A stretch of DNA of 64,000 nucleotides from Myxococcota bacterium. GTDB lineage: Bacteria > Myxococcota_A > UBA796 > SXON01. Made by a program: the position numbers and the translations under genes. Under the pieces are notes generated by a model. It searched no databases and was not told where the DNA came from. It worked only from the letters and a program-made list of their open reading frames with translations. This document shows positions 38,278 through 54,033 of the stretch, piece after piece (position 1 is the first letter of the stretch; every line of letters begins with the position of its first letter). The DNA lies in the NCBI GenBank assembly GCA_040386535.1, contig JAZKFH010000024.1, forward strand, positions 68,330 to 132,329, read 5' to 3'.

Positions 38278-40896
38278 CTAGGGACAGTCATAGTTGGCGG
38301 CGCCGGGCGTGCCGTACTCGACCGCGGTGGCGCTCGCGTAGTACCAGCGGTACGCGCTGGTGTTGGTGGTCGAGCACCAGTGCGTCAGGTCGTCGTTGTC
38401 GGTCCCGTCGAGGAAGGCGGGGTCGAGCGAGAGCGAGCGCTGCGCGTCGCGCGGCCAGTAGCCGTCCGTCGCGTCGTAGGTCCAGTGCACGTCGTCCACG
38501 AGCGTGCCCGTGGTCGTGTCCCCGTCGATCCACACGGAGAGGGTGTCCTCGTCGCGTTGGAGGCTGAACGTGTTGTCGTGGTAGGTGCCCTCGTAGGTCG
38601 AGGCGCGGGAGGCGTCCCCCCACGTGTAGTCGCACACCAACGTGCTCGAAGCGGTCGAGGCGGCGGTGTAGGTCGTCGTCTTGCAGAACACCGCGTAGTC
38701 GCCCGCGCCGAGCACCACGCTGTCGGCGGGGTCGACGTAGAAGCTGTCCCGCACACCGACGCCCGCGTAGCGGGACACGTACCAATTGGACAGGTCGATG
38801 TCGCGGTCGGAGTTGTTGTAGAGCTCGAACCACGCGCCGTTGGTGTTGGTCGCGGCGGCGCCGAAGCGCGGCTGACGTGTCACCTCGCTGACGATGATGT
38901 CGCCCAGGCCGACGAAGTCCTCGTCGACGAAGCCGTCGCAGTCGTTGTCGGCCAGGTCGTCGGCCTCGGGCGCCGCGGGGAAGCTGGTGCCGTCGGTGTC
39001 GTCGCAGTCCGTCGCGTCGTTCGCGTAGCCAACCGGCAGGTCGCAGGCGCTGGTCGTGGCGGTCGAGACGCCGTGCCCGTCCCCGTCCGCGTCGATGTAC
39101 CAGGTGGTCTCGCCGATCGCGCCGGACTCGTCCGCGGCGCCGTCGCAGTCGTCGTCGCGATCGTTGCAGGACTCGGCGGCGCCGGGGTTGACCGCCCCGA
39201 GGCTGTCGTCACAATCGTCCGCCGAGGCCGTGAAGCCCGAGGGCGCCGCGCACGCCGAGAGGCTGGTGGCGGCGGTGCCGTAGCCGTCGGCGTCCGTGTC
39301 CGCGTACCAGGTGGCGGCGTCGGCCGCAGCGTCCTCGTCCACCGTGCCGTCGCAGTTGTTGTCGGCGGTGTCACACACCTCGACGCCGGCGGGGTTGTTG
39401 GTCGCGCTCGCGTCGTCACAATCGTCGGCATTGGTGACATACCCGCGCACGCTGCGGCACGAGGCGGTCGTGACCGCGGGATCACCGTACCCGTCGGTGT
39501 CCGCGTCGGCGAAGTAGCTCGTCGCGTCCGCCGCATCGTCGTCCGCGACGGCGTCACAATCGTCGTCCAGGCCGTTGCAGGTCTCGATCGCGTCGGGATG
39601 CACGAGCGAGTTGGCATCGTCGCAGTCGTCCCCCGTCTCGGCGTAGCCGGCGGGGAGGCCGCAGGACGAGACCGACAGGTCGGCGTCGCCGTAGCCGTCG
39701 GAGTCCGCGTCGTCATAGTAGGTGCGCTCGTCGAGCGCGCCGTCGTCGATGGCGCCGTCGCAATCGTTGTCCTCGAGGTCACACACCTCGTTCGCCCCCA
39801 CGAACGTGAGCGCGTCCGCGTCGTCGCAGTCGGTCGCGTCGTCGACGTAGCCCTCGGGCTGCGCGCACGCGGAGGTCGACACCGCCTCGTCGCCGAAGCC
39901 GTCCGCGTCGGCATCGACATACCACTCGGTGAAGGCGAGGCCGTCGTCCGCGGCGGTGGAGCAGTCGTTGTCCAGCCCGTCGCAGATCTCGACCGCGGCG
40001 GGGTTCACGGCGGCGGACGTGTCGTCACAGTCGGTGAAGTCCTCGATCCGCCCCTCGATCGGGTCACACGAGCGCACCGCGGTCGTGATGTCGCCGAATC
40101 CGTCCGCGTCCGCGTCCACGTAGTACGCGGTCCCGTCCACAGGGTCGTTCGCGACGTTTCCATCGCAGTCCCGATCCAACTCGTCACACAATTCGTCGGC
40201 GGCGGGGTTCACGTCGGCCGCGGCGTCGTCGCAGTCGGTCGCGTCGGCCACGAAGCCGTCGGGGGTGCGGCACGAGAGGACCGACTCGGCGGCGCTCCCG
40301 AAGCCGTCGGCATCGGCGTCCCGGTAGTAGGGCACCTCGTCCGGGCTGCCCTCGTTGACCGCGCCGTCACAGTCGTTGTCGAGGTCGTCACAAATCTCGT
40401 CCGCGCCCGGGTACACGGTGGCCTGGGCGTCGTCACAATCGTCGTCCACGGGGGCGTAGCCGTCGGGGAGCACGCCACAGTAGGTGGTCTCGGCGCCGGG
40501 GGCCCCGTAGCCGTCGAGGTCGGCGTCGAGATACGCGATCTCGCCGTCGGTCGCGCCGATGTCGACCAGGCCGTCACAATCGTTGTCCGCCTCGTCGCAG
40601 ACCTCGGTCCCGTCGGGGTTGATCGTGGCATCCCGATCGTCGCAGTCATCACCCACGACGAAGCCGTCGAGGTCCTGGTCGGTGTCGTTGCCGTCGCAAT
40701 TCTGGTCGATGCCGTCGTACCAGGTCTCGGCGATGTCCGGGTTGACCAGCTCGTCCCCGTCGTCGCAATCGCCTCCGGCCACGGTGAAGCCGTCCTGATC
40801 CGTGTCGTCGGTGGATGCCGCGCCCGTGTCGTCCGCGCCCTTGTCCGTGCAGGCGACGATGAACAGGGCGAACAACGAGAGGGTCAGCGTCTTCAT
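38278..40896 (-). CDS. Tandem paralog: lipoprotein with 10 MopE-type repeats and a lamin-tail domain
   Basis: 3' part of ORF 38278..44646; real start ATG 40896 (MKTLTLSLFALFIVAC); same architecture as 35573..38200. Confidence 0.9.
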   Translation of the reverse strand: MKTLTLSLFALFIVACTDKGADDTGAASTDDTDQDGFTVAGGDCDDGDELVNPDIAETWYDGIDQNCDGNDTDQDLDGFVVGDDCDDRDATINPDGTEVCDEADNDCDGLVDIGATDGEIAYLDADLDGYGAPGAETTYCGVLPDGYAPVDDDCDDAQATVYPGADEICDDLDNDCDGAVNEGSPDEVPYYRDADADGFGSAAESVLSCRTPDGFVADATDCDDAAADVNPAADELCDELDRDCDGNVANDPVDGTAYYVDADADGFGDITTAVRSCDPIEGRIEDFTDCDDTSAAVNPAAVEICDGLDNDCSTAADDGLAFTEWYVDADADGFGDEAVSTSACAQPEGYVDDATDCDDADALTFVGANEVCDLEDNDCDGAIDDGALDERTYYDDADSDGYGDADLSVSSCGLPAGYAETGDDCDDANSLVHPDAIETCNGLDDDCDAVADDDAADATSYFADADTDGYGDPAVTTASCRSVRGYVTNADDCDDASATNNPAGVEVCDTADNNCDGTVDEDAAADAATWYADTDADGYGTAATSLSACAAPSGFTASADDCDDSLGAVNPGAAESCNDRDDDCDGAADESGAIGETTWYIDADGDGHGVSTATTSACDLPVGYANDATDCDDTDGTSFPAAPEADDLADNDCDGFVDEDFVGLGDIIVSEVTRQPRFGAAATNTNGAWFELYNNSDRDIDLSNWYVSRYAGVGVRDSFYVDPADSVVLGAGDYAVFCKTTTYTAASTASSTLVCDYTWGDASRASTYEGTYHDNTFSLQRDEDTLSVWIDGDTTTGTLVDDVHWTYDATDGYWPRDAQRSLSLDPAFLDGTDNDDLTHWCSTTNTSAYRWYYASATAVEYGTPGAANYDCP

Positions 40897-40952
40897 GGTG
40901 CCTGGGGGCGAGGGCGGCCACCATAGCAGAAGCCCGCGGACCGTGGAACCAA

Positions 40953-41504
40953 TCAACCAATCCGATCGCCACCCCGCGCGAAGAGCGGATGTGCCAGAAG
41001 ATGGATCCACCCGTAGTGCAGGCCCGCCGCGGTGCCGAACAGGCCGGTGAGCACGGTGGGGACGAGCGCGTCGCCATCGAGCAGGACCGTGACCACGGAC
41101 ACCGCGAGGAGCACGGCGGTGACACGCCCGAGCAGGCTGGTGCGGGGCGCGGGCCCCCGCCCCGTGCGGAAGTTGTGCATCAGCACGGGGTGCATCACGA
41201 CTTGGATGAGCTCGCGGCTGAACCACGCGAGCATCCACCAATCCGGCATGCGATCGAGCACCGCGAGGGTCCACCCGAGGTTGACGTGGAGGGTCTTGTC
41301 CACCCACCCGTCGAACGCCGCGCCGGCGGCCGAGGCGGTGCCCGTGCGGCGCGCCACCGCGCCGTCGACCACGTCCGTGAGCAGCGCGAACAGGTACACC
41401 CAGAGGCCCCACTGCGTCGGGACCACGAAGGGCATGGCGGCGGCGAGGAGGAGCCGGGAGAACGTCAGCGCGCCCGCGACGTTGAGGAGCTGGCGCAGCT
41501 GCAT
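40953..41504 (-). CDS. CDP-alcohol phosphatidyltransferase family protein
   Basis: LTFSRL, DVVDGAVARR.......G..FD..VDK signature. Confidence 0.9.
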   Translation of the reverse strand: MQLRQLLNVAGALTFSRLLLAAAMPFVVPTQWGLWVYLFALLTDVVDGAVARRTGTASAAGAAFDGWVDKTLHVNLGWTLAVLDRMPDWWMLAWFSRELIQVVMHPVLMHNFRTGRGPAPRTSLLGRVTAVLLAVSVVTVLLDGDALVPTVLTGLFGTAAGLHYGWIHLLAHPLFARGGDRIG

Positions 41505-41541
41505 GGGCCCCGATCCCTACCCCGTGCGCCTCCGCCCCGCG

Positions 41542-41547
41542 TAGAAT
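41542..41547 (+). promoter_or_regulatory. Candidate -10 box (TAGAAT) 6 nt before ATG 41554; possible leaderless mRNA
   Basis: TAGAAT-GTGACG-ATG with no SD sequence. Confidence 0.5.
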
Positions 41548-41553
41548 GTGACG

Positions 41554-44145
41554 ATGCTGTTGCACCTCCTCGCGTGCGCCGACAAGACGCTCGACGACAC
41601 TGCGCCCGTCCCTCCCGATCTGACCGAACGCCTGGCCGCCGACGAGGTGCGCGCGGGCGTGATCACCGACGTGGCGTCGCTCTTCGGCGGCATCTCCGCG
41701 GAGGGCGCGGTCGGCGACATCAAGCTCTACAACGACCGCGTCCAGTTCGTGATCGAGGCCGTCGGCGACAGCGGCTACTACGTCGAGTACGGCGGCGGCC
41801 TGATCGACGCGGACATCGTGCGCGCCGAGGGCGTGCCCGGCCGCGACATGGTCGACGAGATCACGCCGATGGTGGGGCTCGGCCGCGTCGTGAACGCCAC
41901 GAGCGTCACCGTGCTGCAGGACGGCGCGAGCGGCGAGGCCGTGGTGCGCGTCGAGGGCCCCGCCGCGCCGATGCAGCTCATCACGGGCGCGCTGGAGAGC
42001 CCCTCGGTGGTGCCCGACCTCGATCTGCGCGTCCGGACCGACTACACGCTCGCCCCGCGCGCGTGGACGCTGAAGGCCACCACCACGGTGTGGAGCGACG
42101 AAGGCGAGCCGGTCGACCTGTACGTCGGCCAGGTGGCGCTGATGGCGTCGGACGTGTCCGAGGCGTGGCGCCCCGGGGACGGCCGGGAGGACGCCTCGGG
42201 CGACGACGTCGACGTGGTCGGCGCCGTGGGCCTGAAGAACGAGGTCGCGTTCGTGCTGGCGGGGGACGGCGCGCCGCTCGAGAGCGGGACCGTCGGCCGC
42301 CTCCTCGGCGCGATCACGCCCGCGCTCGTCGGCTTCGGCCCCAGCACGACGCTGCCCCCGGGTGAGTCGATGACCTGGTCCAGCTGGCTCGGCGTCGGCC
42401 CGGACATCGCCACGCTGACCGCGGAGAACCTCGGCCGCGGCACCGTGGCGACCCAGACCGTCGCCGGCACGGTCACCGCCGGCGGAGCCCCCGTGGCGGG
42501 CGCCCGCGTGCACGTCCTCGACGGCGCCGGCGCCCCGATCACCCTCGCCTTCACCGACACCGCGGGCGCCTGGAGCGCCACGGTGCCCGCCGGCCCGGTC
42601 TCCTTCGTGGCCTCTGGGCGCGGAAGCTCCCTCCAGATCGATCTCCCCGCGGGCGCGGGGTGGTACTCCCCCTACGACGCCGATCCCACCGTCACCCTCG
42701 CCTCGCTCGCCTCGGGCGCCGAGGGCCCGGCGTTCGCCGAGGGCTACGGCTTCTCCGCGGCGAGCACCGATCCCGATCTCGTCCTCGTCGAGCCCGGCAC
42801 GTTGCTGGTGACCGTGGCGGACGGAGGCTCCGCGGTCGTGTACGCGGCGTACCCGACGGGTGATGCCGTCGTGGCCGACGCGCGGCTCGTGCCCGGCCGG
42901 CCCAGCGGCCATGCCGCCATCGGCTTCATCCGCGACGGCGAGCTGGGCCTGCGTCTGGAGCCGGGCACCTACGACGTGGTCGTGTACCGCGGCGCGCGCG
43001 ACGAGCTGGTGCGTGCCTCCGTCACCATCGCGAGCGGCGAGACCGTTCCGCTCACCGCCGACATCGTGCCCGCCTACACGCTCGACGGCGTCATCACCAT
43101 CGATCCGCACAGCCACGCCTCGCCCAGCAGCGACGCGAGCATCAGCATGGCCGACCGTCTGATCGTGACGGCCGCCAACGGGGTCGACGTGCACGTCGGC
43201 ACCGATCACGACCACACGGTCGACTACCGCCCGCTCCTCGCGCCGCTCGGGCTCGACGGGCGCCTCGTGAGCGTCGTCGCGACCGAGGTGAGCCCGGTCC
43301 TGCGCGGGCACTTCAACACGTGGCCCGGCACGGTCACGCCGGGCGCCACGAACGGCGGCGCGCCGCGGTGGTGGTTCGGGTACGTCGACACCGCCGAGAT
43401 CTTCGGGTGGATGCGCACGATGGTGGGCGAGGAGGGCATCGTCCAGGCGAACCACCCCGTCGGCTCGAGCGGGATGTTCACGCTCGCGGGCTACGACGGC
43501 AACGGCAGCGTGAACACGCCCGACCACTGGTCCGACGACTTCGACGCGATGGAGCTCCTCAACGACGGGGACTGGGAGGACAACCTCCCCTACTACCTCG
43601 ACCTCGTCTCCCGCGGCCGCGTCGTCACCCCCGTGGGCGTGAGCGACTCGCACGCGCACATGTCCGGCGGCGTGGGCCTGAACCTGACGTTCCTCAACAC
43701 GGGGACGCCCCTCGCCGGCATCGACGACGATCTCCTCCGCGCCACCATGCACGCGCGCGGCACCGTCGTGAGCCACGGTCCGTACATCGACGCGCGGATC
43801 GGCGGGGAGTGGGCGCCGGGCGCCACCGTCTCGTCCGGGAGCGTCCTGACGGTCGACGTGCGCGCGCCGAGCTGGATGCCCGTCGAGACCCTCACCCTCT
43901 ACGAGGACGGCGTGCCCGTCGCGACCGAGGCCTGCCTGGGCGCGGCGCCGACGCCGTGCTCCGCGTCGTGGCCGCTGGCGCCCGCGGCCGACGCGTTCTA
44001 CGTCGTGATCGCGGCAAGCACGACCCTCGCGATGGAAGGCGCCCACGCCGGCAACCTCGCGTGGGCGGCCACCGCGGCCACCTTCGTGGACGTGGACGGC
44101 GACGGGTGGACCCCGCCGCGCGCGCCCATCGAGATCGGCGGATAG
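41554..44145 (+). CDS. CehA/McbA-like PHP-family metallohydrolase lipoprotein
   Basis: MLLHLLAC; PHP motifs DPHSH, TDHDH, GHFN, QANHP, GVSDSH. Alternative start GTG 41548. Confidence 0.85.
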   Translation: MLLHLLACADKTLDDTAPVPPDLTERLAADEVRAGVITDVASLFGGISAEGAVGDIKLYNDRVQFVIEAVGDSGYYVEYGGGLIDADIVRAEGVPGRDMVDEITPMVGLGRVVNATSVTVLQDGASGEAVVRVEGPAAPMQLITGALESPSVVPDLDLRVRTDYTLAPRAWTLKATTTVWSDEGEPVDLYVGQVALMASDVSEAWRPGDGREDASGDDVDVVGAVGLKNEVAFVLAGDGAPLESGTVGRLLGAITPALVGFGPSTTLPPGESMTWSSWLGVGPDIATLTAENLGRGTVATQTVAGTVTAGGAPVAGARVHVLDGAGAPITLAFTDTAGAWSATVPAGPVSFVASGRGSSLQIDLPAGAGWYSPYDADPTVTLASLASGAEGPAFAEGYGFSAASTDPDLVLVEPGTLLVTVADGGSAVVYAAYPTGDAVVADARLVPGRPSGHAAIGFIRDGELGLRLEPGTYDVVVYRGARDELVRASVTIASGETVPLTADIVPAYTLDGVITIDPHSHASPSSDASISMADRLIVTAANGVDVHVGTDHDHTVDYRPLLAPLGLDGRLVSVVATEVSPVLRGHFNTWPGTVTPGATNGGAPRWWFGYVDTAEIFGWMRTMVGEEGIVQANHPVGSSGMFTLAGYDGNGSVNTPDHWSDDFDAMELLNDGDWEDNLPYYLDLVSRGRVVTPVGVSDSHAHMSGGVGLNLTFLNTGTPLAGIDDDLLRATMHARGTVVSHGPYIDARIGGEWAPGATVSSGSVLTVDVRAPSWMPVETLTLYEDGVPVATEACLGAAPTPCSASWPLAPAADAFYVVIAASTTLAMEGAHAGNLAWAATAATFVDVDGDGWTPPRAPIEIGG

Positions 44146-44196
44146 TGTCCCCGCTTCCCGTCCGCCCCCGATAGAACGGCGTCCCCCGGAGTTCCC

Positions 44197-44748
44197 ATGG
44201 GTCTCATCCGCTCCCTCGCGAAGAAGGTCATCGGCAAGGTGGCCGGCCGCGCCGACACCGACGCCGGCCCCCGGGCGTCCACGCCGTCGTCGACCGGATC
44301 GGCCGCCGCGCCGTCGGACCGGAACGCGCCGCTGGGCTCGGGCCCCACCCTTGTCCGCGCGCACGACCAGGTCGCGGTCGCCGGGGACGAGGAGCCCGTG
44401 GTCGAGAACGCCGAGGCGCTCTCGATGATCGAGTGCTCCGCGCAGGAGATCAAGGAGCGGCTCGACGCCGGCGAGCCCGTCACCGTGCTCGACGTGCGCG
44501 AGCCCTCGGAGACCGCGGGCGGCATCATCCCCGGCGCGCTGCTCATCCCCCTCGGGCAGCTCCGCGCCCGCTGGGAAGAGGTCAAGGACGCCAACGAGAT
44601 CGTCTGCTACTGCGCCGCGGGCGCCCGCTCGCTCCAGGCGGCCCACTTCCTCCGCGAGAAGGGGCTGTTCAACGCCACGAGCCTCGACGGGGGCATCTCG
44701 GGGTGGATGGAGATCGGCGGCAAGATCAAGCGGCCTTCCCTCCCGTGA
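44197..44748 (+). CDS. Rhodanese-like domain protein
   Basis: VLDVREP.E...GIIPGALLIPL, CYCAAGARS, SLDGGI..W. Confidence 0.92.
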   Translation: MGLIRSLAKKVIGKVAGRADTDAGPRASTPSSTGSAAAPSDRNAPLGSGPTLVRAHDQVAVAGDEEPVVENAEALSMIECSAQEIKERLDAGEPVTVLDVREPSETAGGIIPGALLIPLGQLRARWEEVKDANEIVCYCAAGARSLQAAHFLREKGLFNATSLDGGISGWMEIGGKIKRPSLP

Positions 44749-45533
44749 CCGCTCCCGAGCGCGCGCCGGAGCTGGTGGTCGTCGGGCCGGGGCGCGTCGG
44801 GAGCGCCTTTGTGCGCGCCGCCGAGAAGGCGGGGATCGCCACGGTCGCCGTGGGGCGCGCCGATCAGACCGCCCTCACGACGTCCCACCCCGGCGTCCCC
44901 ATCGTCGTGTGCACGCGCGCCGACGATCTCGCGGCGGTCATCGCGGCGACCGCGCCCGAGAACCGCGCCGACCTGGTGTTCGTCCAGAACGGGATGATCC
45001 GGCCCCTCCTCACGGCCCACGGCCTCGCCGAGAACACCCAGGGGCTCGTGTACTTCGCGGCCACCTCGCGCACCGCTCCGGTCGAGCCCGGCGCGCCCAG
45101 CCTGTTCTGGGGGCCGCACGCCGCCGCGATCGTGGCGATGCTCGCCGCCGACCGCATCCCCGCCCGCGTCGTGACCGATCGCGACGAGTTCGCGCGCGAG
45201 ATCGGCGCCAAGCTCGCGTGGAACGTGATCTTCGGCCTGCTCGGCCAGCGCTTCGACCAGCCGGTCGGCGAGACCGTGCGCCGCCGCCGCCCGGAGGTGG
45301 TCGCGCTCGCGAAGGAGATCGTGCCGGTGCTCGCGCGCGCGCTCGACACGCCGATCCCGGTCCGCCCCCTCGTGGAGGGGCTGCTGGCCTACTCCGCGCG
45401 CATCCCGACCTTCCGCGCCACGGTGAAGGAGCTCGCCTGGCGCAACGGCTGGGTGGCGGGGGCCGCGCGGAGTTTCGGCCTCGCGACGCCGCTGCACGAC
45501 AAGCTGCTCCGCGAGACCGAGCGCCCGCCGTAA
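44745..45533 (+). CDS. Ketopantoate-reductase-like Rossmann-fold protein
   Basis: VVVGPGRVG, VCTRADDL, DLVFVQNGM, KLAWN, VKELAWRNGW; GTG start overlapping the rhodanese stop. Confidence 0.8.
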   Translation: MTAPERAPELVVVGPGRVGSAFVRAAEKAGIATVAVGRADQTALTTSHPGVPIVVCTRADDLAAVIAATAPENRADLVFVQNGMIRPLLTAHGLAENTQGLVYFAATSRTAPVEPGAPSLFWGPHAAAIVAMLAADRIPARVVTDRDEFAREIGAKLAWNVIFGLLGQRFDQPVGETVRRRRPEVVALAKEIVPVLARALDTPIPVRPLVEGLLAYSARIPTFRATVKELAWRNGWVAGAARSFGLATPLHDKLLRETERPP

Positions 45534-45570
45534 GTCAGGAGACGGTCGCGCCGTAAGTCAGGAGACGGTC
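45526..45570 (+). repeat. Perfect 22-bp tandem direct repeat (period 23)
   Basis: CGCCGTAAGTCAGGAGACGGTC at 45526-45547 and 45549-45570. Confidence 0.9.
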
Positions 45571-45600
45571 CAGGCCGAGGTCGACCGCGAGGTGGTGCGC

Positions 45601-45606
45601 TATACT
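45601..45606 (+). promoter_or_regulatory. Candidate -10 box (TATACT) 7 nt before GTG 45614; possible leaderless mRNA
   Basis: TATACT-CCGCGCC-GTG with no SD sequence. Confidence 0.55.
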
Positions 45607-45613
45607 CCGCGCC

Positions 45614-47176
45614 GTGCGCCCCATCCGCGAACGCCTCCTCCGCAAGGGCGACTACGTCCACGGCTCGTTCTTCAAGCCGGAACAAGTCGATGGCTACATC
45701 AACGCCGTGAACCCCGGTGACAGGACCGACGTCCTCGGTCGGTTCCCCTTCTCCACCCGTAGCGTCGACGACGCGATCGAGTTCGCCACCGTCGGCGCCA
45801 CGCGCTGGCGCCGGGTCGGGCTCAACGATCGCGCCGCGGCCCTCCGCCGCTTCCGCGAGCAGCTGCACCACGCGCAGGAGACGCTCGCGCGCCTCGTGAC
45901 GCGCGAGAACGGCAAGCCGCTCTGGGAGGCGCGCCAGGAGGTGCAGTCGGCGATCCGCACGGTCGACATCTACCTGGATGACGGTGTGGGCCTGCTCGCG
46001 CCGCGCATCGTCGAGGAGATCTCCGCGCGCACCGACTACGTGCCGCGTGGCGTCGTCGGCGTGGTGAGCCCCTACAACCTGCCCGTGCTGCTCGGCGTCG
46101 GCATGACCGCCGCCGCGGTGCTCGCGGGCAACGCGGTCATCATCAAGCCGAGCAAGTTCACGCCAGGCGTGGGCCAGCTCATCGCCGAGTTGTGGGACCG
46201 CGCGAAGCTGCCCCGCGGCGTCTTCAGCCTCGTGCACGGCTCCGGCAGCGTCATCGGGCAGCGGCTGGTCGGCCACGCCGGGCTCGACGCGCTCCTGTTC
46301 GCCGGCAGCTTCGAGAGCGCGCGGGACGTGCGGCGCGCCACGGCCGAGCGTCCCGAGCTGCCCGCCCTCTACCAGTCCGGCGGCAAGGGCATCGCGCTCG
46401 TGTTGGACGACGCCGAGCTCGACCGCGCCGTGTACGAGGTGCTCGTCGGCGCCTTCATGTCGACCGGGCAGCGCCACAACTCGACCGCGCGAGTCTTCGT
46501 CACCGAGGGCATCTACGAGCGCTTCGCCGAGGAGCTCGTGCGCCGCGCCCAGCGTTTGCGCATCGGCTACGGCTTCGACAACGACGTGTTCATGGGCCCG
46601 CTCATCTCGGAGAACTTCCGGACGCGGTTCCGCAAGTATTGCCGGGCCGTCACGAGCAAGGGCCACACGGCGCTGCTCGAGGGGGACACGCACGAGGTGC
46701 AGGGGTACCGCGGCAACTACGCGAAGCCCGGCATCTACAAGGTGGACTGGCAGAACGGGAGCCCCTTCCTGAACGACGAGCCGCCCGGCCCCATCGCGCT
46801 CCTGTACGTGGTCAAGAACTGGGAGGAGGCCGTGAGCCTGCACAACCAGGCCACCTACCGCATGACCGCGAGCATCTTCACGCGGCCGCAGAACCCCGTG
46901 CTCCCCGAGCTGCGGGACGCGCTGCGCACCGGCTCGGTCAACGTGAACCGCGGCACCATCGGCCAGAGCCTCCGCCTCCCCTCGACCGGGCTCGGCCGCG
47001 CTGGGAACGGCGTGGCCGGCGGAATCGAGCTGTTGCGGGTGCTCACGGTGCCGCGCGGGAGCCTCTCGGAGACCCGCCCGTTCGACGCGCAGAACCTCGT
47101 CCCGGGCGTGGCCTGGACCGATGAGGACGACGACGACTCCGATCTCGGAGGGGCGTTGGAGCTGGCCGTCGAATAG
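45614..47176 (+). CDS. Aldehyde dehydrogenase family protein (AstD-like) with substituted catalytic residues
   Basis: ENGKPLWEA, SPYNLP, AGNAVIIKPS, FAGS; but YQSGGKG replaces LEMGGKN and GQRHNS replaces GQRCT. Confidence 0.9.
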   Translation: MRPIRERLLRKGDYVHGSFFKPEQVDGYINAVNPGDRTDVLGRFPFSTRSVDDAIEFATVGATRWRRVGLNDRAAALRRFREQLHHAQETLARLVTRENGKPLWEARQEVQSAIRTVDIYLDDGVGLLAPRIVEEISARTDYVPRGVVGVVSPYNLPVLLGVGMTAAAVLAGNAVIIKPSKFTPGVGQLIAELWDRAKLPRGVFSLVHGSGSVIGQRLVGHAGLDALLFAGSFESARDVRRATAERPELPALYQSGGKGIALVLDDAELDRAVYEVLVGAFMSTGQRHNSTARVFVTEGIYERFAEELVRRAQRLRIGYGFDNDVFMGPLISENFRTRFRKYCRAVTSKGHTALLEGDTHEVQGYRGNYAKPGIYKVDWQNGSPFLNDEPPGPIALLYVVKNWEEAVSLHNQATYRMTASIFTRPQNPVLPELRDALRTGSVNVNRGTIGQSLRLPSTGLGRAGNGVAGGIELLRVLTVPRGSLSETRPFDAQNLVPGVAWTDEDDDDSDLGGALELAVE

Positions 47177-47185
47177 ACGCTACCG

Positions 47186-48094
47186 ATGTCCAAGATCTCG
47201 ATCGGAAACGTCCAGCTCGACCTGGGTGCCGGGCGCCGCGGCGTCGACATGGGGCCCTCCGCCATCCATCTCGCCGGCCTCAAGAGCGGCATCATCGCGC
47301 TCGGCCACCAGGTGATGGAGAACTACGCCATCGGCGCCGCGTCGCAAGAGATGGTCGATCCCGGCGATCCACACGCCCGCTTCCTCCCCGAGATCGCGCG
47401 CGTCTGCTCCGAGCTGGCCGACCGCGTCGAGCTCGCTCTGGAGCACGGCTGGTTCCCCGTCGTGCTCGGCGGCGATCACTCCGTCGCCATCGGCACGATC
47501 TCCGGCATCGCCCGCTTCTACCGCAAGCGCGGCCAGCGCATCGGCGTGTTGTGGGTCGACGCCCACACCGACTCGAACACCCCCGAGACCTCGCCCTCCG
47601 GCAACATCCACGGCATGCCGCTCGCGGTGCTGCTCGGGCACGGTCCGCGCGACCTGGTCGCGATCGCGGGCGCCGAGCCCGCCCTCCGCATCGGCGACGT
47701 GTGCGTGATCGGCGCGCGCGACATCGACATGACGGAGCGTTCGGTCGTGCACGAGATGGGGCTGCGCGTCTACACGATGAGCGAGTTGGACGAGCGCGGC
47801 ACCGCCGTGTGCGTGCGCGAGGCCATCGAGCGAGTGAGCGCGCACACCGCCGGCGTGCACCTGTCCTTCGATCTCGACGGCGTGGACCCCCAGCATGCGC
47901 CCGGCGTCGGCACGCCCGTGCCCGGCGGCCTCAACCTGCGCGAGTCCCACCTCATCTGCGAGAAGGTCGCGCAGACGGGCAAGGTGCTGGGCGTGGAGAT
48001 GGTCGAGCTCAACCCGGTCATCGACAGCGAGAACCGCACCGGCAAGCTGGCCGTGTGGCTCATCCTCTCGGCGCTCGGCAAGACCATCCTGTAG
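47186..48094 (+). CDS. rocF: Arginase
   Basis: RRGVDMGPSA, GGDHS, WVDAHTD.NTP.TSPSGNIHGMP, SFDLDGVDP, PGVGTPV.GG, VELNP. Confidence 0.95.
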   Translation: MSKISIGNVQLDLGAGRRGVDMGPSAIHLAGLKSGIIALGHQVMENYAIGAASQEMVDPGDPHARFLPEIARVCSELADRVELALEHGWFPVVLGGDHSVAIGTISGIARFYRKRGQRIGVLWVDAHTDSNTPETSPSGNIHGMPLAVLLGHGPRDLVAIAGAEPALRIGDVCVIGARDIDMTERSVVHEMGLRVYTMSELDERGTAVCVREAIERVSAHTAGVHLSFDLDGVDPQHAPGVGTPVPGGLNLRESHLICEKVAQTGKVLGVEMVELNPVIDSENRTGKLAVWLILSALGKTIL

Positions 48095-48143
48095 CGCCCG
48101 TTCGCAAGCTGAAACTCGGCGGGTCGAGTAGATTTCTCGGGAG

Positions 48144-50018
48144 GTGACGGTGCGCGTTTGGCTGCTTCCATGTCTCGGAGTGTGCCTCGCGGCCTGTACC
48201 TCCACGTCGAAAGACGACACCGGCTCCGGCCCGGTCGAGCTGAGTTGTGAGGGGGCGCCCCCGCCCACCTGGTACGCCGATCTCGACGGGGACGGCTTCG
48301 GGCGCGCCGGATCCGACCGCGCGGCCTGCGAGGTGCCCGAGGACTACGTCGCCAACGCGGATGACTGTGACGACGCGCGCGCCGGCGTGTTCCCCGGCGC
48401 GGCCGAGGCGTGTGACGGCCTGGACGGCGACTGTGACGGCGAGGGAGACGACACCGATCCCGACGTGACGCGAACGAGCTGGTACCTCGACGCGGACGCT
48501 GATGGCTACGGGGATGCCGACGCGACCACGTCCGCCTGCGCCGCCCCCCCCGGCTACGCGGCCGCGGCCGGAGATTGCGCGGACGACAACGCCGCCGTGT
48601 TCCCCGACGCGCCCGACGCGTGTGGTGGCGGAGACGACGATTGTGACGGCGCGGACGACGCGTGCACCCGCGAGGGGGAGCTCTCCGTGGCCGACGCGGA
48701 CGCGACCCTGGTGGGCGAGGCCGCGGGGGACGCGGCCGGGACGTGGGTCGCCGTCGGCGATGTCGATGGGGACGGCATCGCCGACGCGTTGACCAGCGCG
48801 CCCTACGCGGAAGGGGTGGCCGGCGCGGCGTGGCTCGTGCGCGGCCCGTTCATGGGGACGCGGCGCCTGGAGGACGCGGATCTCCGCATCGCGGGCACGC
48901 CCCCGGTGGACGACATGGGTGGCTTCACGATCGGGCCCGTGGCCCTCGGGGATCTCGACGGGGACGGCCTCGCGGAGCTCGTGATCGCCGCCCCGGACGG
49001 CGGGGCCGAGACCGGCGTGTGGCGCTTCCTGGGCACCGCGCGCGGCGCGATGGATCTGGACGCGGCGGACGGCGAGCGCCTCGGCGGGCCCGATGACGGC
49101 GTCGGCACCAGCCTCGCCATCGGCGGGGACCTCGACGGGGACGGCCTGTTCGACCTGCTCGTGGGCGCGCCGGGCGCGAGCGTCGAGGGCGTGGAGCGGG
49201 GCGGCGTGGCGCTCGTCAGCGGCGCGTTCGGCGGCACGGGCCTGCTGGCGGACACGGCTACATGGCTGTTCGGGGAGACCGCGGGCGCCGAGGCCGGAGC
49301 CGCGGTGGCCAGCCCCGGAGACATCGATGGAGACGGCTTCGCCGATCTGCTCGTGGGGGCGCCCGGCGCCATCGCCGCGGGCGATATCGACGCGGCCGCC
49401 ATCGGGGCGGCGTACCTGTTCTACGGGCCGCTCTCCGGGTCCCCGTCGCTCGCGGACGCGGACGGCACCCTGTACGGCGAGGCGGCGGGTGACCGCGCGG
49501 GCGCCGCGGTCGCCGGGGTGGGCGACATCGACGGGGACGGCGTGGCCGACGTGATGATCGGCGCCCCGGGGGTGGACCTCGGCGGCGACGACACGGGTGA
49601 CCTCGGCACCCTCGACGTCGGCGCGGCCTACCTCGTGCGCGGGCCGATCACGGGCGAGGGCCTGTTGGCCGATGCCCACTGCACCCTGTTGGGTGACACC
49701 GCCGGCCACGACGCCGGCACGACGATCGTGGCGCTGGGCGACATGAACGAGGATGGCCGCGCGGACGTGGGGGTGGCCGGGGCCGGCGCGGGGCGCGCGT
49801 GGCTCCTGCTCGGGCCGTTCGCGGGGACGGTCGCCCTGACCTACGCCGAGGTGACGCTGGTTGGCGGCGATGCCCTGGACGAGACCGGCGCGAGCCTCGC
49901 GGGCGGCGCGGATCTCGACGGCGACGGGGAGTTCGACCTGCTCGTCGGGAGCCCCGGGGCGGACGCGGGGGGCAGCGGCGCGGGGATGGTCTCGATGGTG
50001 CGGGGGTGGGTGCGATGA
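48144..50018 (+). CDS. Lipoprotein with MopE-type repeats and an FG-GAP (integrin-alpha-like) beta-propeller
   Basis: LAAC lipobox; two DCDD repeats; about seven GD.DGDG..D..VGAP repeats. Confidence 0.88.
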   Translation: MTVRVWLLPCLGVCLAACTSTSKDDTGSGPVELSCEGAPPPTWYADLDGDGFGRAGSDRAACEVPEDYVANADDCDDARAGVFPGAAEACDGLDGDCDGEGDDTDPDVTRTSWYLDADADGYGDADATTSACAAPPGYAAAAGDCADDNAAVFPDAPDACGGGDDDCDGADDACTREGELSVADADATLVGEAAGDAAGTWVAVGDVDGDGIADALTSAPYAEGVAGAAWLVRGPFMGTRRLEDADLRIAGTPPVDDMGGFTIGPVALGDLDGDGLAELVIAAPDGGAETGVWRFLGTARGAMDLDAADGERLGGPDDGVGTSLAIGGDLDGDGLFDLLVGAPGASVEGVERGGVALVSGAFGGTGLLADTATWLFGETAGAEAGAAVASPGDIDGDGFADLLVGAPGAIAAGDIDAAAIGAAYLFYGPLSGSPSLADADGTLYGEAAGDRAGAAVAGVGDIDGDGVADVMIGAPGVDLGGDDTGDLGTLDVGAAYLVRGPITGEGLLADAHCTLLGDTAGHDAGTTIVALGDMNEDGRADVGVAGAGAGRAWLLLGPFAGTVALTYAEVTLVGGDALDETGASLAGGADLDGDGEFDLLVGSPGADAGGSGAGMVSMVRGWVR

Positions 50019-52078
50019 GGCGGCTTCTGGAAGGATCAGCGATCTCGTTCCTGCTGGCGCTCGGGATGCTCGCCGGCTGCACCGAGGACAAGCGCGGGAA
50101 GGTCGACCATGACGGCGACGGCGCGAGCGCGTCCATCGACTGCGACGACACCGATCCCACGCGGTTCCCCGGGAACCCTGAGCGCTGTGACGGCTTCGAC
50201 GAGGACTGCGACGGCGTGGCCGACAACCTCGCGATCGACGCGATCCTGACCTACACCGACCTCGACGGCGACGGCTTCGGGGACAACGCCTCGGCCTTCG
50301 CGTCGTGCGTGGCGCCCGTGCGCGGCGTGGCGAGGGGCGACGACTGCGACGACGCCGATGCCACCGTGTTCCCCGGCGCCTACGAGACCTGTGACGGACG
50401 CGACCAGGACTGCGACGGCGCGATCGACGTGGGCGCGATCGACGCCCGCACCCGCTACCCGGACGCCGACGGCGACGGCTACGGGGACGACGCGGCCGTG
50501 GTCACCAGCTGCGACGCGGTCGGCCTGGACGAGGGCGGGGACTGCGACGACGCCGACGCCGCGGTGTTCCCCGGCGCCGAGGAGCGTTGTGACGCCGTCG
50601 ACACCGACTGCGACGGCCTCGCCGATGTCGGCGCGACGGACGGCGTGGCCTGGTACACGGACGCCGACGGGGACGGCTACGGCGATCCCGAGAGCGACGG
50701 CGTGGTGGACTGCGCGGCGGACGGCCGCGCTCCCAACCGGTTCGACTGTGACGACGCCGACGCGGGGATCAGCCCGGAGATGGGCGGGTGCGGCCTCGTC
50801 GGCGAGAGCGAGCCGGTCGACGCCGGGCTCACCCTGTTCGGCGTCGACGAGGGCGACGCCGTCGGCACCCTCCACGTCGCGGCCGACCTCGACGGCGACG
50901 GCGCGGCCGAGTTGCTCGTGGGTGCGCCGAGCGCGGACGCCTTCTACGTGCTGGCCGGCCCGCTCCGCGGGGACGAGTCGCTCGCCAGCCCGCTGATCAA
51001 GCGCCGCTACGTCAGCGGAGGCGCGTCGTTCGGCGCCGCGCTCGCCGTGGGCGACTTCGACGGGGACGGCGTGCCCGACGTGGCCGTGGGCGCCCCGGAC
51101 GACGACACGCTCGGCGCCTACAGCGGCCGCGTGTGGATCTTCGCCGGGCCGCTCGCCGGCAGCACCACCGAGGCGAGCGCGCTGCGCGCCATCGACGCCG
51201 AGAGCTCCCGCGACGGCCTGGGCGAGGCGCTGGTGGCCGTGCCCGACGCCGACGGCGACGGCCTGGCCGACCTGCTCGTCGGCGCTCCCGACGATGGGCT
51301 GGGCGCCGGCATCGCGTACCTCATCAGCGGCACCAGCACCGACCTGACGACCCCCATCGCCCGGTTCGAGTCCGCCACCTCCTACGACCGCGCCGGGAAC
51401 AACGTCGCCGCGGGTGACCTCGATGGCGACGGCCTCGCCGACTACGTCATCGCGGCCCCGAGCGCGCCCGAGGTCTACGTGATGTCGGGCGGCGTGACCG
51501 GCACCATCGACCTGTCCGACGCCGACACCACCATCGGCGGGCGCGGCTCCGGCTACCAGACGGGCAAGTCCCTCGCCGTGGTCGGCGATCAGGACGGGGA
51601 CGGCCTGCTCGACCTGTTCGTGGGCGGCCCGACCACCGGGAGCAGCGTGTCGGTCTCCGGCGGAGAGGCGTGGGTCCTGGTCACGCCCCTCGCTGCGGAC
51701 GTGACCCTCGGGCGCCACGAGTGGGCCACGCTCGTGGGCGAGGCCACGGGAGACGCCGCGGGCGGATCGGTGGCTGGCGGCGATCTCGACGGGGACGGCC
51801 ACGACGACCTCGTGATCGGCGCCGCGGGCAACGATCGCGCGCACACCGACGCGGGCGCCGCCTACGTGTTCTACGGCATCACGAGCGGAAGCACCCCGCT
51901 CGCCAGCGCCGACGCGATGCTCCTCGGGCACGCCGCAGGGCTCGCGCTCGGCAGCGGCGCGCTCCTCGCGGACCTCGACGGCGACACCCTCGCCGACCTC
52001 GTGGCGGGCGGCGTGGGCGAGTCCGTGGGCGGGGTGGGCGCCGGCGCCACGTGGGTGTGGTTCGGCGGGCGGCGCTGA
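50015..52078 (+). CDS. Tandem paralog: MopE-type repeats plus FG-GAP repeats, lipoprotein
   Basis: ATG 50015 overlapping the upstream stop; MLAGC lipobox; four DCDD repeats; about seven FG-GAP repeats. Confidence 0.88.
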   Translation: MRRLLEGSAISFLLALGMLAGCTEDKRGKVDHDGDGASASIDCDDTDPTRFPGNPERCDGFDEDCDGVADNLAIDAILTYTDLDGDGFGDNASAFASCVAPVRGVARGDDCDDADATVFPGAYETCDGRDQDCDGAIDVGAIDARTRYPDADGDGYGDDAAVVTSCDAVGLDEGGDCDDADAAVFPGAEERCDAVDTDCDGLADVGATDGVAWYTDADGDGYGDPESDGVVDCAADGRAPNRFDCDDADAGISPEMGGCGLVGESEPVDAGLTLFGVDEGDAVGTLHVAADLDGDGAAELLVGAPSADAFYVLAGPLRGDESLASPLIKRRYVSGGASFGAALAVGDFDGDGVPDVAVGAPDDDTLGAYSGRVWIFAGPLAGSTTEASALRAIDAESSRDGLGEALVAVPDADGDGLADLLVGAPDDGLGAGIAYLISGTSTDLTTPIARFESATSYDRAGNNVAAGDLDGDGLADYVIAAPSAPEVYVMSGGVTGTIDLSDADTTIGGRGSGYQTGKSLAVVGDQDGDGLLDLFVGGPTTGSSVSVSGGEAWVLVTPLAADVTLGRHEWATLVGEATGDAAGGSVAGGDLDGDGHDDLVIGAAGNDRAHTDAGAAYVFYGITSGSTPLASADAMLLGHAAGLALGSGALLADLDGDTLADLVAGGVGESVGGVGAGATWVWFGGRR

Positions 52079-52463: not shown

Positions 52464-53243
52464 CTACGAGCTCGCGCTGGTGTAGTGCCGGAGCGCCTGC
52501 ACCCACGCGATGCGGCTCACCACCAACATGCCGATGCCCACCCCGACCGCCTGCGCCGCGAGCGCGAGGTCGAGGCGGCCGAGCAGCGCGAGCGCGGGGT
52601 AGGAGGTCACCAGCGCCACCGGCACGAACACGGTCAGGAAAACGCGCACCCAGCCCGTGTAGATGGTGACGGGCCAACGCCCCGCGTCGACGACGGCGCC
52701 GAGCAGGTAGCGCAGGTTGTCGACCCGCACGAACCAGAAGCTCGTGCAGATGACGAGCACCCACAGGCCGTAGACGGCGGCGAGCCCCGCCAACAGGAGC
52801 CCGGCCGCCGTCAGCGCGTCCACGGGGGTGGGCGTCGGCAGGTGCGCGAGGGCGTACGCCCCTACGACGAGCCCGCCGAGCAGATCCCAGAGGCGCGCGG
52901 GCGCGACGCGCTGGAAGCTGGCGACGAACTGCGCGTCGGGCGGCTTGAGCAGCAGGTAGTCGAGCTGGCCCGACCGCACGCCCTCGACGAGCGCGCCGAG
53001 GTTGGGCTCGACCAGGCCACCCACGAGCGCCTGGAGCACCAGGAAGAAGGCGCCCACCAGCAGGGCCTCGTGGAGCGACCAGCCCGCCACGGAGCCGGTG
53101 TGGTCGTAGACGAACAGGAGCGGGAGCGCCACGCCGGCGGTGGTGCCGAGGCCGACGAAGAACTCGAGCAGGAAGCTCGCGCGGTACTGCATCGCCGTCA
53201 TCAGCGCGACGCGGACCAGGGCCAACAGGACGCCGCTACGCAC
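52464..53243 (-). CDS. ABC-2 type (DUF990-like) permease
   Basis: MQYRASF, GWS..E, VRSGQLDYLLLKP, GRWP..IY, LTVFVP; GTG start 53243. Confidence 0.88.
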   Translation of the reverse strand: MRSGVLLALVRVALMTAMQYRASFLLEFFVGLGTTAGVALPLLFVYDHTGSVAGWSLHEALLVGAFFLVLQALVGGLVEPNLGALVEGVRSGQLDYLLLKPPDAQFVASFQRVAPARLWDLLGGLVVGAYALAHLPTPTPVDALTAAGLLLAGLAAVYGLWVLVICTSFWFVRVDNLRYLLGAVVDAGRWPVTIYTGWVRVFLTVFVPVALVTSYPALALLGRLDLALAAQAVGVGIGMLVVSRIAWVQALRHYTSASS

Positions 53244-54033
53244 CGACCGCTCCGTAGCGACGCAAGCCGGCGCGCCAACCGACCAGGGTGCCGAGGCCCA
53301 GGATCGCCACCCACGCGGCCTGGACCGCGAGGGTGCGCCCGATGGGGGCGAGGCCGAGGAGGAGCTCCACCGGCGCCCCGAGCGAGGCGTGGAAGGGCAG
53401 CCAGGCGGCCACCGCGGCCACGTTCGCGGGGAGCAACGGCAGGGGGATGAGGTAGCCGCCGAGCAACGCCCACACGAAGAACCACACCTGGAACAGGCCG
53501 AGCGACTGGTCGAACCAGAAGGCGAGCACGCCGAAGAGGCACTGGACGAACCAGGCGACGAGCAGCGCGAAGAAGAGCGAGACCACAAAACCGGCGGCGG
53601 CGGCAGGCGCGGGCACGAACAGGATCTCGGGGCGCCACACGGCCACGGCCGCGAGGACGGGGCCGAGCACCACGAGGCGCCACGGCACGGCGGCGACGGT
53701 CTCCGCGAACTGCCACCACAAGGGGTTCATCGGGCGGAGGAGCTGCGGCGAGAGCGAGCCGGTGCGGATCTGCTGGTTGAGCTCCCAGAGCACCCACACG
53801 CCGGTGAGCTGCCGCACGAGCAGCGTCACGGCGAAGTAGCGCGCGAAGTCGGCCTGCCCGAAGCCGGCGAGCGGCCCGTCCGCCGCGGCCGCGTTCCACA
53901 ACGCGAGCATGACCAGGGGCAGCGTGGCCGTGAGGATCCAGATGATCATCTCGGCGCGGTAGGCGACCATCTCCGCCACGGCGATGCGGAGGAGCGAGGG
54001 AAACGCGCGCAGGGCCTGGATCAGCCCGGTCAC
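53236..54033 (-). CDS. ABC-2 type (DUF990-like) permease
   Basis: AYRAE, IRTGSLS..LLRP, GGYLIPL.LLP, WLPF, G.RRY..VG. Confidence 0.88.
   Translation of the reverse strand: MTGLIQALRAFPSLLRIAVAEMVAYRAEMIIWILTATLPLVMLALWNAAAADGPLAGFGQADFARYFAVTLLVRQLTGVWVLWELNQQIRTGSLSPQLLRPMNPLWWQFAETVAAVPWRLVVLGPVLAAVAVWRPEILFVPAPAAAAGFVVSLFFALLVAWFVQCLFGVLAFWFDQSLGLFQVWFFVWALLGGYLIPLPLLPANVAAVAAWLPFHASLGAPVELLLGLAPIGRTLAVQAAWVAILGLGTLVGWRAGLRRYGAVGA

Follow-up and report, generated by a model that had tools for sequence, protein, structure and literature searches.

Aldehyde dehydrogenases (ALDHs) employ a cysteine as the catalytic nucleophile and a glutamate as the general base, along with an asparagine in the oxyanion hole and a lysine and a further glutamate that serve the cofactor. 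The vertebrate ALDH16 is the only member of the superfamily named as inactive in passages of a 2025 review, which describe ALDH16A1 as an ALDH scaffold without the catalytic triad and without an assigned function, for which a regulatory role via protein–protein interaction has been proposed, and which note that ALDH16 bears an additional C-terminal PutA-like domain (PMC12041015). A search of the open-access literature and bioRxiv found no description of a bacterial ALDH family lacking the catalytic cysteine. The gene considered here lies in a 64,000-nucleotide stretch of the genome of a Myxococcota bacterium (GenBank assembly GCA_040386535.1, contig JAZKFH010000024.1, positions 68,330 to 132,329 of the forward strand; hereafter, the window), and encodes an intact ALDH-fold protein in which both the catalytic cysteine and the general-base glutamate are missing. 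This observation is confirmed by the analyses below, and the product of the gene (hereafter, the ALDH-like protein) is very probably a maintained protein that does not operate as a thiol-dependent ALDH.

The closest solved relatives of the ALDH-like protein, by both sequence and fold, are the AstD-type ALDHs (5u0l, 3ju8, and 4kna; 28–31% identity), with which it has in common the GQR that precedes the nucleophile position and an N(W)NR.T.G motif. It differs from them in the replacement of Cys by His, of Glu by Gln, of Phe by Pro, of PFGG by LPST, and of the Glu after KPS by Lys, and in an extra acidic C-terminal tail. The protein also remains below the AstD cut-offs (TIGR03240, 229.7 vs. 579.3 bits; NF006992, 241.3 vs. 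514 bits) and reaches no NCBIfam ALDH model, the best being GucD (264.6 bits vs. a cut-off of 770). The nearest functional analog is ALDH16A1, as both proteins keep the ALDH scaffold minus the catalytic residues; however, the ALDH-like protein is 520 amino acids (aa) long, has only a disordered tail of ∼40 aa, and has no PutA-like domain. A bacterial ALDH16 structure, 6mvr, scores 158.8 bits, below the AstD-type chains, and ALDH16 belongs to a different branch; the loss described here occurred in another, bacterial subfamily and is independent of that in ALDH16. Canonical members of the wider AstD-like superclade (P0146 and P0151) resemble the ALDH-like protein in their N-terminal GDY/GNY..G.F start and in 35–40% identity, but they keep LEMGGKN, GQRC, EExFGP, and KPSE (and with these Asn, Glu, Cys, and Phe), and lack the synteny shared within the family.

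The reading frame of the gene is intact, with a GTG start and a TAG stop in a setting of ∼70–75% G+C, and its product matches Pfam Aldedh (PF00171) with 327.4 bits over residues 27–475. In the AlphaFold2 (AF2) model of the protein (predicted local distance difference test, pLDDT, 92.4; predicted template modeling score, pTM, 0.88), only the tail is disordered (its two final blocks have pLDDT values of 58 and 49). The top Foldseek match of this model is 5u0l_A (TM 0.88/0.94), with 3ju8 at likewise 0.88/0.94, and TM values of 0.84–0.94 were obtained for many ALDH structures, AstD-type and others. As the match extends over the whole domain and the three-domain fold is predicted, the modeled protein belongs to the ALDH superfamily fold.

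The former catalytic positions were located by phmmer alignment to the best solved relative, 5u0l (193.5 bits), which is labeled as an N-succinylglutamate 5-semialdehyde dehydrogenase. Opposite LEMGGNN in 5u0l, the ALDH-like protein has YQSGGKG (Glu to Gln254); opposite GQRCT, it has GQRHN (Cys to His288), and the codon at this site is read as CAC in the DNA context ggg cag cgc cac aac tcg acc; and opposite QEFFGP, it has DEPPGP, in which the Glu is retained and Phe is replaced by Pro391. An earlier reading made from the DNA letters alone (the sequence-only reading) had reported an intact 520-aa ALDH fold 9 nt before an arginase gene, the change of GQRC to GQRH with a CAC codon, the change of LEMGGKN to YQSGGKG, and the retention of the oxyanion Asn and the cofactor Lys; the open reading frame (ORF), the Pfam match, and the gene junction, the alignment together with the codon, and the presence of Asn155 (PYNLP) and Lys178 (IKPS) agree with it on each of these points. 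It had further listed EExFGP as altered to DEPPGP, which holds for the Phe, although the conserved second Glu is in fact retained. Of the features that a catalytically competent ALDH displays, the Cys of GQxC and the general-base Glu of LExGGK are thus absent, and the oxyanion Asn of PxNxP is present in the window protein. The NAD(P) motifs (the Lys of KPS, GxGxxxG, the Gly of FxGS, and the Glu of EExFGP) are present and 0.77–1.00 conserved, but the Phe of EExFGP is Pro.

We examined the same positions in two sets of relatives. Close homologs were obtained by a word-indexed search (120 homologs at 58–94% identity; 121 aligned sequences including the query), and orthologs were drawn from the DNA around the gene in 58 genomes, from which two canonical, non-syntenic loci (L136 and L137) were removed to leave 56. 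Among the close homologs, the nucleophile site is occupied by His in 110, Pro in 5, Ala in 3, Ser in 2, Tyr in 1, and Cys in none, and almost all carry EPPGP. Among the orthologs, position 288 is His in 38, Pro in 6, Phe in 5, Ala in 4, Arg in 2, and Tyr in 1, again with no Cys, while position 254, the canonical general-base Glu, is Gln in 40, Asn in 5, Leu in 3, Met in 2, Glu in 2, and Ala, Ser, Phe, or His in one each. The oxyanion position 155 is Asn in 32 and another residue in 24; position 181, the canonical Glu after KPS, is Lys in 52; and position 391, the canonical Phe of EExFGP, is Pro in 50. The sole cysteine of the ALDH-like protein, C343, lies in a column where just 29% of the 121 homologs have a Cys; because this column is not conserved, no alternative thiol is available in the protein, and the objection that another Cys could occupy the active site, which the sequence-only reading had allowed for, does not apply. 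We also considered and rejected a relocated nucleophile in the form YQCGGKG, a position that is Cys in 53% of the close homologs and in 24/56 orthologs, Ser in the window protein, and Thr in many others.

To place this variation in a wider context, an exhaustive search was made of 1.84 billion cluster representatives. The ALDH-like protein falls in a wider AstD-like group, most members of which (at 30–39% identity) keep LEMGGKN, GQRC, and EExFGP; 81 of 125 full-length representatives of the group are canonical. In the lineages nearer the query, several have GQRH, GQRR, GQRP, GQRF, GQRY, or GQRA. A maximum-likelihood tree was built from 83 rows (LG+G4 in quick mode, no outgroup, with the direction of change taken from the canonical majority). 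In it, the nearest degenerate forms group together in a single 24-row clade (SH-aLRT 99), nested in a group of 34 rows (SH-aLRT 96) that also holds canonical members, P0151 among them. Several traits are specific to the degenerate clade. The Lys after KPS occurs in 100% of its sequences, vs. Glu in 65% of canonical representatives; a Gly is replaced by Arg416; PFGG is replaced by a variable P-S/A-V/T-G (LPST in the window protein); and the columns of the C-terminal extension, in which W501 is 99% conserved within the clade, are gapped in 81–100% of canonical representatives. Orthologs from other families of the same class have Phe (GQRFNST; L132–L135) or Arg (GQRRSST; L130–L131) at the nucleophile site, and in these KPSK is either kept or becomes NPSS or KPSS, and EPPGP becomes EEVPGP or EEIVGP.

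As judged from these alignments, the Cys/Glu chemistry was lost anciently and across the family, and the family holds a natural series of pocket variants. The suggestion that the His/Gln variant is a conserved clade linked to rocF is upheld in part: all degenerate forms fall in one clade and Cys was never found, but the His is itself variable, and the rocF link occurs in only one taxonomic family. A new, His-based chemistry, which had also been proposed, is disfavored, since 18/56 orthologs have Pro, Ala, Phe, Arg, or Tyr in place of the His, and orthologs with Ala (four loci in one genus) or Pro keep the same putative operon, including the arginase downstream.

The gene has long been kept in a single copy, under purifying selection. 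In a survey of 41 related genomes (match threshold E ≤ 1e-100), one intact ALDH-like match without internal stops was found in 40; the assembly of the one remaining genome is 79% complete. When 301 genomes from across the phylum were sampled, the gene was present in 43/43 genomes of the window's order, some of which are assembled into only 1–2 contigs, and, at 38–42% identity, in 6/6 genomes from three further families of the same class; it was found in 0/8 genomes from two other families of the class, and the rest of the sampled phylum was without it, except for two weak matches that are both canonical enzymes. The ratio of nonsynonymous to synonymous substitution rates (dN/dS; pairwise NG86, nine pairs from the genus and its neighbors) is 0.10–0.26 for the ALDH-like gene, which matches the 0.08–0.24 of the adjacent arginase gene, and is 0.15–0.51 for the rhodanese gene upstream; dS is probably compressed by the extreme G+C content at third codon positions (GC3), but the comparison among neighboring genes is still valid. 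The missing catalytic residues could in principle mark a decaying pseudogene, or assembly or sequencing errors, and nothing else speaks for this explanation. Against it, the frame is intact without internal stops in 40/40 matches, the dN/dS values are low (as above), and the same substitutions recur in independent assemblies and metagenomes, with no Cys among either the 121 homologs or the 56 orthologs. Sequencing error and recent decay of the gene are excluded, and the probability that we would leave to a pseudogene or an artifact is negligible.

We propose that these proteins constitute a family of AstD-related ALDH-fold proteins that is old and has been passed on vertically. The family lost thiol-based aldehyde dehydrogenase chemistry long ago while the gene was kept in single copy under purifying selection, and in the window's taxonomic family its member would be encoded in a putative operon with a rhodanese, a ketopantoate-reductase (KPR)-fold oxidoreductase, and an arginase. 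Five positions of the old pocket (Asn, Gln, His, and the PFGG equivalent) have consensus frequencies of 0.46–0.71 among the 56 orthologs, which correspond to the 25th–57th percentile of the protein. The average is 0.94 for 15 positions of the cofactor motifs (the Pro of PxNxP, K-x-S-K, GxGxxxG, FxGS, GG, and the Glu, Gly, and Pro of EPPGP), and G231, KPSK, GxGxxxG, and EPPGP are nearly invariant. Given that variation at the former catalytic positions contrasts with fixed nucleotide-binding motifs, a dinucleotide is probably still bound, and since the Lys after KPS would suit a 2′-phosphate, a 2′-phosphorylated form such as NADP(H) is plausible. The protein would then act by binding, whether it senses a ligand, regulates, or forms a non-catalytic subunit, and the old pocket would no longer be a site of turnover. 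We consider a role as binder, sensor, or regulatory subunit, to judge from these motifs, to stand at about an even chance of being correct; the sensor or non-catalytic subunit proposed in the sequence-only reading appears to be the best interpretation of the present data.

Several observations weigh against action by binding. The related genomes are kin, so that counts among them are not independent; the signs that the cofactor site is retained are sequence motifs; and many of the cofactor-motif residues are Gly or Pro, so that part of their conservation may be driven by the fold only. His is still the majority residue at position 288 (38/56 orthologs and 110/121 close homologs), which is above the expectation under neutral drift. 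Furthermore, the clade has invariant polar residues of its own, comprising 19 conserved Arg residues as well as E109, E275, N445, and R446, which could build a new active site. The only fusion that hints at a sensor is P0136, a metagenomic protein of 847 aa in which a Ser/Thr kinase (Pkinase) and a coiled-coil-like linker stand N-terminal to a His-variant ALDH-like domain, and it is a single protein (a one-member cluster on one 12-kb contig). No such kinase fusion was found in 154 genomes of the order, where all 138 matches cover the ALDH part only, and no kinase lies within 1.5 kb at the four nearest loci. When longer fused forms were sought, nothing but ordinary ALDH fusions came up (PutA, aminotransferase, and others; 26–35% identity).

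The main alternative is that the protein is an active enzyme after all, in which the ALDH scaffold supports a new chemistry independent of Cys. This might be an NAD(P)H-dependent reduction or oxidation of a non-aldehyde substrate, or a non-redox reaction, carried out by clade-specific Arg, Glu, or Asn residues with or without His288. Such invariant polar residues do exist in the clade, as listed above. Conservation is very strong for a protein of 520 aa (58–63% identity and ∼710–740 bits across the order), the cofactor motifs are retained, and in the window's family the gene lies amid enzymes (rhodanese, KPR-fold reductase, and arginase). However, all three former active-site positions vary (His is lost in 18/56, Gln in 16/56, and Asn in 24/56), the PFGG pocket motif is variable, and the Phe of EExFGP has become Pro in 50/56. 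We regard an enzyme of this kind as unlikely, but as an alternative to be taken seriously.

The relationship with arginase was assessed from synteny at 38 loci of the order, comprising 23 from the window's family and 15 from sister families. In the window's family, a rhodanese gene lies upstream on the same strand at 22/23 loci (at the remaining one, no more than 344 nt of upstream sequence is available), and an arginase gene lies immediately downstream at 16/23; these arginase-adjacent loci span at least six genera and include orthologs of only 57–62% identity. At the other seven loci, at least 7.9 kb of downstream sequence is covered, and the arginase of the genome is on another contig. Neither neighbor occurs at the 15 sister-family loci, three of which have <2 kb of downstream sequence. 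A divergently oriented cystathionine beta-synthase gene (CBS; with pyridoxal-phosphate (PLP) and CBS domains) is found at 12/15 of these and was not seen at the 23 loci of the window's family, and it is usually followed by a PLP enzyme of Cys/Met metabolism (cystathionine lyase), a GT4 glycosyltransferase, and a PlsB-type acyltransferase. In 18 further loci, the divergent CBS gene occurs in 10 and the GT4/PlsB arrangement in 4, including the Arg and Phe variants at 38–41% identity, which share the GT4/PlsB/CBS synteny; the canonical L136 and L137 have neither the CBS nor the GT4 context. Because the CBS/GT4 arrangement is shared by these more distant variants, it is probably ancestral, and the putative rhodanese–arginase operon is probably derived. 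Both contexts touch on sulfur metabolism, that of the window's family through rhodanese and that of the sister families through CBS and cystathionine lyase, which is a suggestive lead, although the CBS synteny may be merely inherited.

The leading idea of the sequence-only reading, that the protein is dedicated to the neighboring arginase as its regulator or as a non-catalytic subunit, draws on the 9-nt same-strand spacing and on the recurrence of the adjacency described above. It is difficult to reconcile with the absence of this adjacency from the sister families (0/15), with the seven non-adjacent loci of the window's own family, and with genome content: arginase is above the family cut-off in 30/41 genomes, and the other 11 (88–100% complete) carry the ALDH-like gene without such an arginase. 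A predicted complex of the ALDH-like protein and arginase scored 0.00 against a mark of 0.32, a result of 'no answer' that weighs neither way. The gene order thus indicates that the adjacency is local, a lineage-specific putative operon rather than a defining partnership, and a coupling to arginase as the core function is not sustained (16/38 loci adjacent, all in one family). We consider a dedicated arginase regulator improbable. Nor would the arginase pathway need the ALDH-like protein as a dehydrogenase, because the window's genome has five other ALDH genes (Pfam 416–605 bits) and an ornithine aminotransferase above the family cut-off, the latter on another contig.

As a special case of the pseudoenzyme interpretation, the protein could join an active ALDH paralog in mixed oligomers and, without catalyzing anything itself, modulate that partner. 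ALDHs obligatorily form dimers or tetramers, several canonical ALDHs are encoded in the genome, and the scaffold is intact. On the other hand, no canonical ALDH is a conserved neighbor in the 58 loci, and identity to the canonical relatives is 30–39%; we find such mixed oligomers to be just as improbable as a dedicated arginase regulator. Extending the proposal that the protein acts by binding, one may speculate that this is the first recognized bacterial family of ALDH-fold pseudoenzymes, class-wide, core, and single-copy in one lineage of Myxococcota, in which a dead AstD-type enzyme turned into a sensor of NADP(H) or a metabolite, was ancestrally wired to sulfur amino-acid metabolism (with the facing CBS/cystathionine-lyase operon), and later moved into the rhodanese/KPR-fold/arginase operon; taken as a whole, this scenario is doubtful, but it is one that we would entertain.

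The features of the locus are collected in Table 1.

Table 1. Coordinates in the window of the ALDH-like gene, its former catalytic and cofactor motifs, and the neighboring features.
Feature	Position	Strand	Basis
Rhodanese, single-domain, sulfurtransferase-like	44197..44748	+	Pfam Rhodanese 68 bits; CAAGAR loop (IVCYCAAGARS)
Ketopantoate-reductase (PanE/ApbA)-fold NAD(P)-type oxidoreductase, ∼263 aa	44742..45533	+	GPGRVGSAF Rossmann motif, AF2, Foldseek; start codon inferred
Perfect tandem duplication, 23 bp × 2	45526..45570	.	TRF: period 23, 2.0 copies, 100% matches
ALDH-like gene, Cys/Glu-less ALDH-fold protein, 520 aa	45614..47176	+	ORF, Pfam, alignment, AF2, Foldseek
Asn155, equivalent of the oxyanion-hole Asn	46076..46078	+	Asn in 32/56 orthologs
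K178-P-S-K181, cofactor Lys kept; Lys181 replaces the canonical Glu after KPS	46145..46156	+	Lys181 in 52/56 orthologs
YQSGGKG, Gln254 at the general-base Glu site	46370..46390	+	Alignment to 5u0l
His288 (CAC) at the catalytic Cys site	46475..46477	+	Alignment to 5u0l and codon read
DEPPGP, Pro391 for the Phe of EExFGP, Glu kept	46775..46792	+	Pro in 50/56 orthologs
C-terminal extension, clade-specific: Trp501, acidic run, terminal LEL-type motif	47051..47173	+	Alignment; predicted disorder from ∼residue 500
Arginase (rocF type), 302 aa, ATG start	47186..48094	+	TIGR01229 280.5 bits vs. cut-off 227.6; Pfam Arginase 237.3 bits

The rhodanese gene is the first of the co-directional cluster, and the N-terminal ∼75 aa of its product are of low complexity. 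The product of the following gene has a sub-threshold match to Pfam ApbA_C (19.6 bits vs. a cut-off of 22.7), and its AF2 model (pLDDT 93.5) is most similar by Foldseek to the Escherichia coli ketopantoate reductase (2ofp/1yjq; TM 0.65–0.75, 15–17% identity), with TM values of 0.65–0.76 and 13–19% identity across ketopantoate reductases and D-mandelate dehydrogenases; its Atlas neighbors are named hypothetical or putative 2-dehydropantoate 2-reductase. The perfect 23-bp repeat spans the stop codon of this gene, in the spacer before the ALDH-like gene, and each of its copies has a TAA and an AGGAG-like stretch. The 9-nt spacer at the far end of the ALDH-like gene separates its TAG (ending at 47176) from the ATG of arginase, on the same strand. 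The arginase is bona fide, as it scores above the equivalog cut-off of TIGR01229 and has the GGDHS, DAHTD, and DLDGVD motifs, which we take to be the Mn ligand motifs and whose columns are invariant in 15 orthologs. A scan for promoters and terminators from 41000 to 48600 gave no promoter-like site and, on the minus strand, one terminator-like site; shuffled sequence yields at least as many.

Downstream of the arginase gene, two large FG-GAP/MopE-repeat proteins (624 and 759 aa) are encoded at 48144–52078 on the plus strand; the first of these genes begins 49 nt past the arginase stop, with a GGGAGG motif before its GTG, and is retained as a neighbor in several genomes of the same genus. A 198-bp repeat (2.7 copies) is present at 50137–50682. 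Farther along, the region from 52500 to 54000 has a strong AT skew (0.45–0.47) at 72–73% G+C, its ORFs have no Pfam match, and it contains a 36-bp repeat (1.9 copies) at 53505–53573. On the minus strand lies an ORF of 2122 aa (38278–44646), whose lamin-tail domain and 10 metal-binding repeats of the MopE type are all confined to the C-terminal part (residues ∼1400–2020). It overlaps two conserved plus-strand genes, for an 865-aa CarboxypepD_reg-like protein (41548–44145) and for the rhodanese (44197–44748); the real gene is probably shorter, and the upstream two-thirds of this ORF a spurious extension of the kind seen in high-GC DNA.

The family of the ALDH-like protein is large, core to one lineage, and mis-annotated. 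Its members are named in databases as 'aldehyde dehydrogenase' or 'succinylglutamate semialdehyde dehydrogenase', and such labels would wrongly add an arginine-catabolic or aldehyde-oxidizing step to metabolic reconstructions of these uncultured predators. An ALDH-fold pseudoenzyme, or a repurposed ALDH scaffold, is of a kind that is already known, and comparison with the literature found here suggests that a bacterial family without the catalytic Cys is new. Should the protein indeed sense a ligand or serve as a regulatory subunit, bacteria would have a counterpart of vertebrate ALDH16A1, which is itself poorly understood, and the role of a dead ALDH could be tested directly with the naturally occurring His, Pro, Ala, Phe, and Arg variants. 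The near-universal presence of the gene in the order suggests that its function is important.

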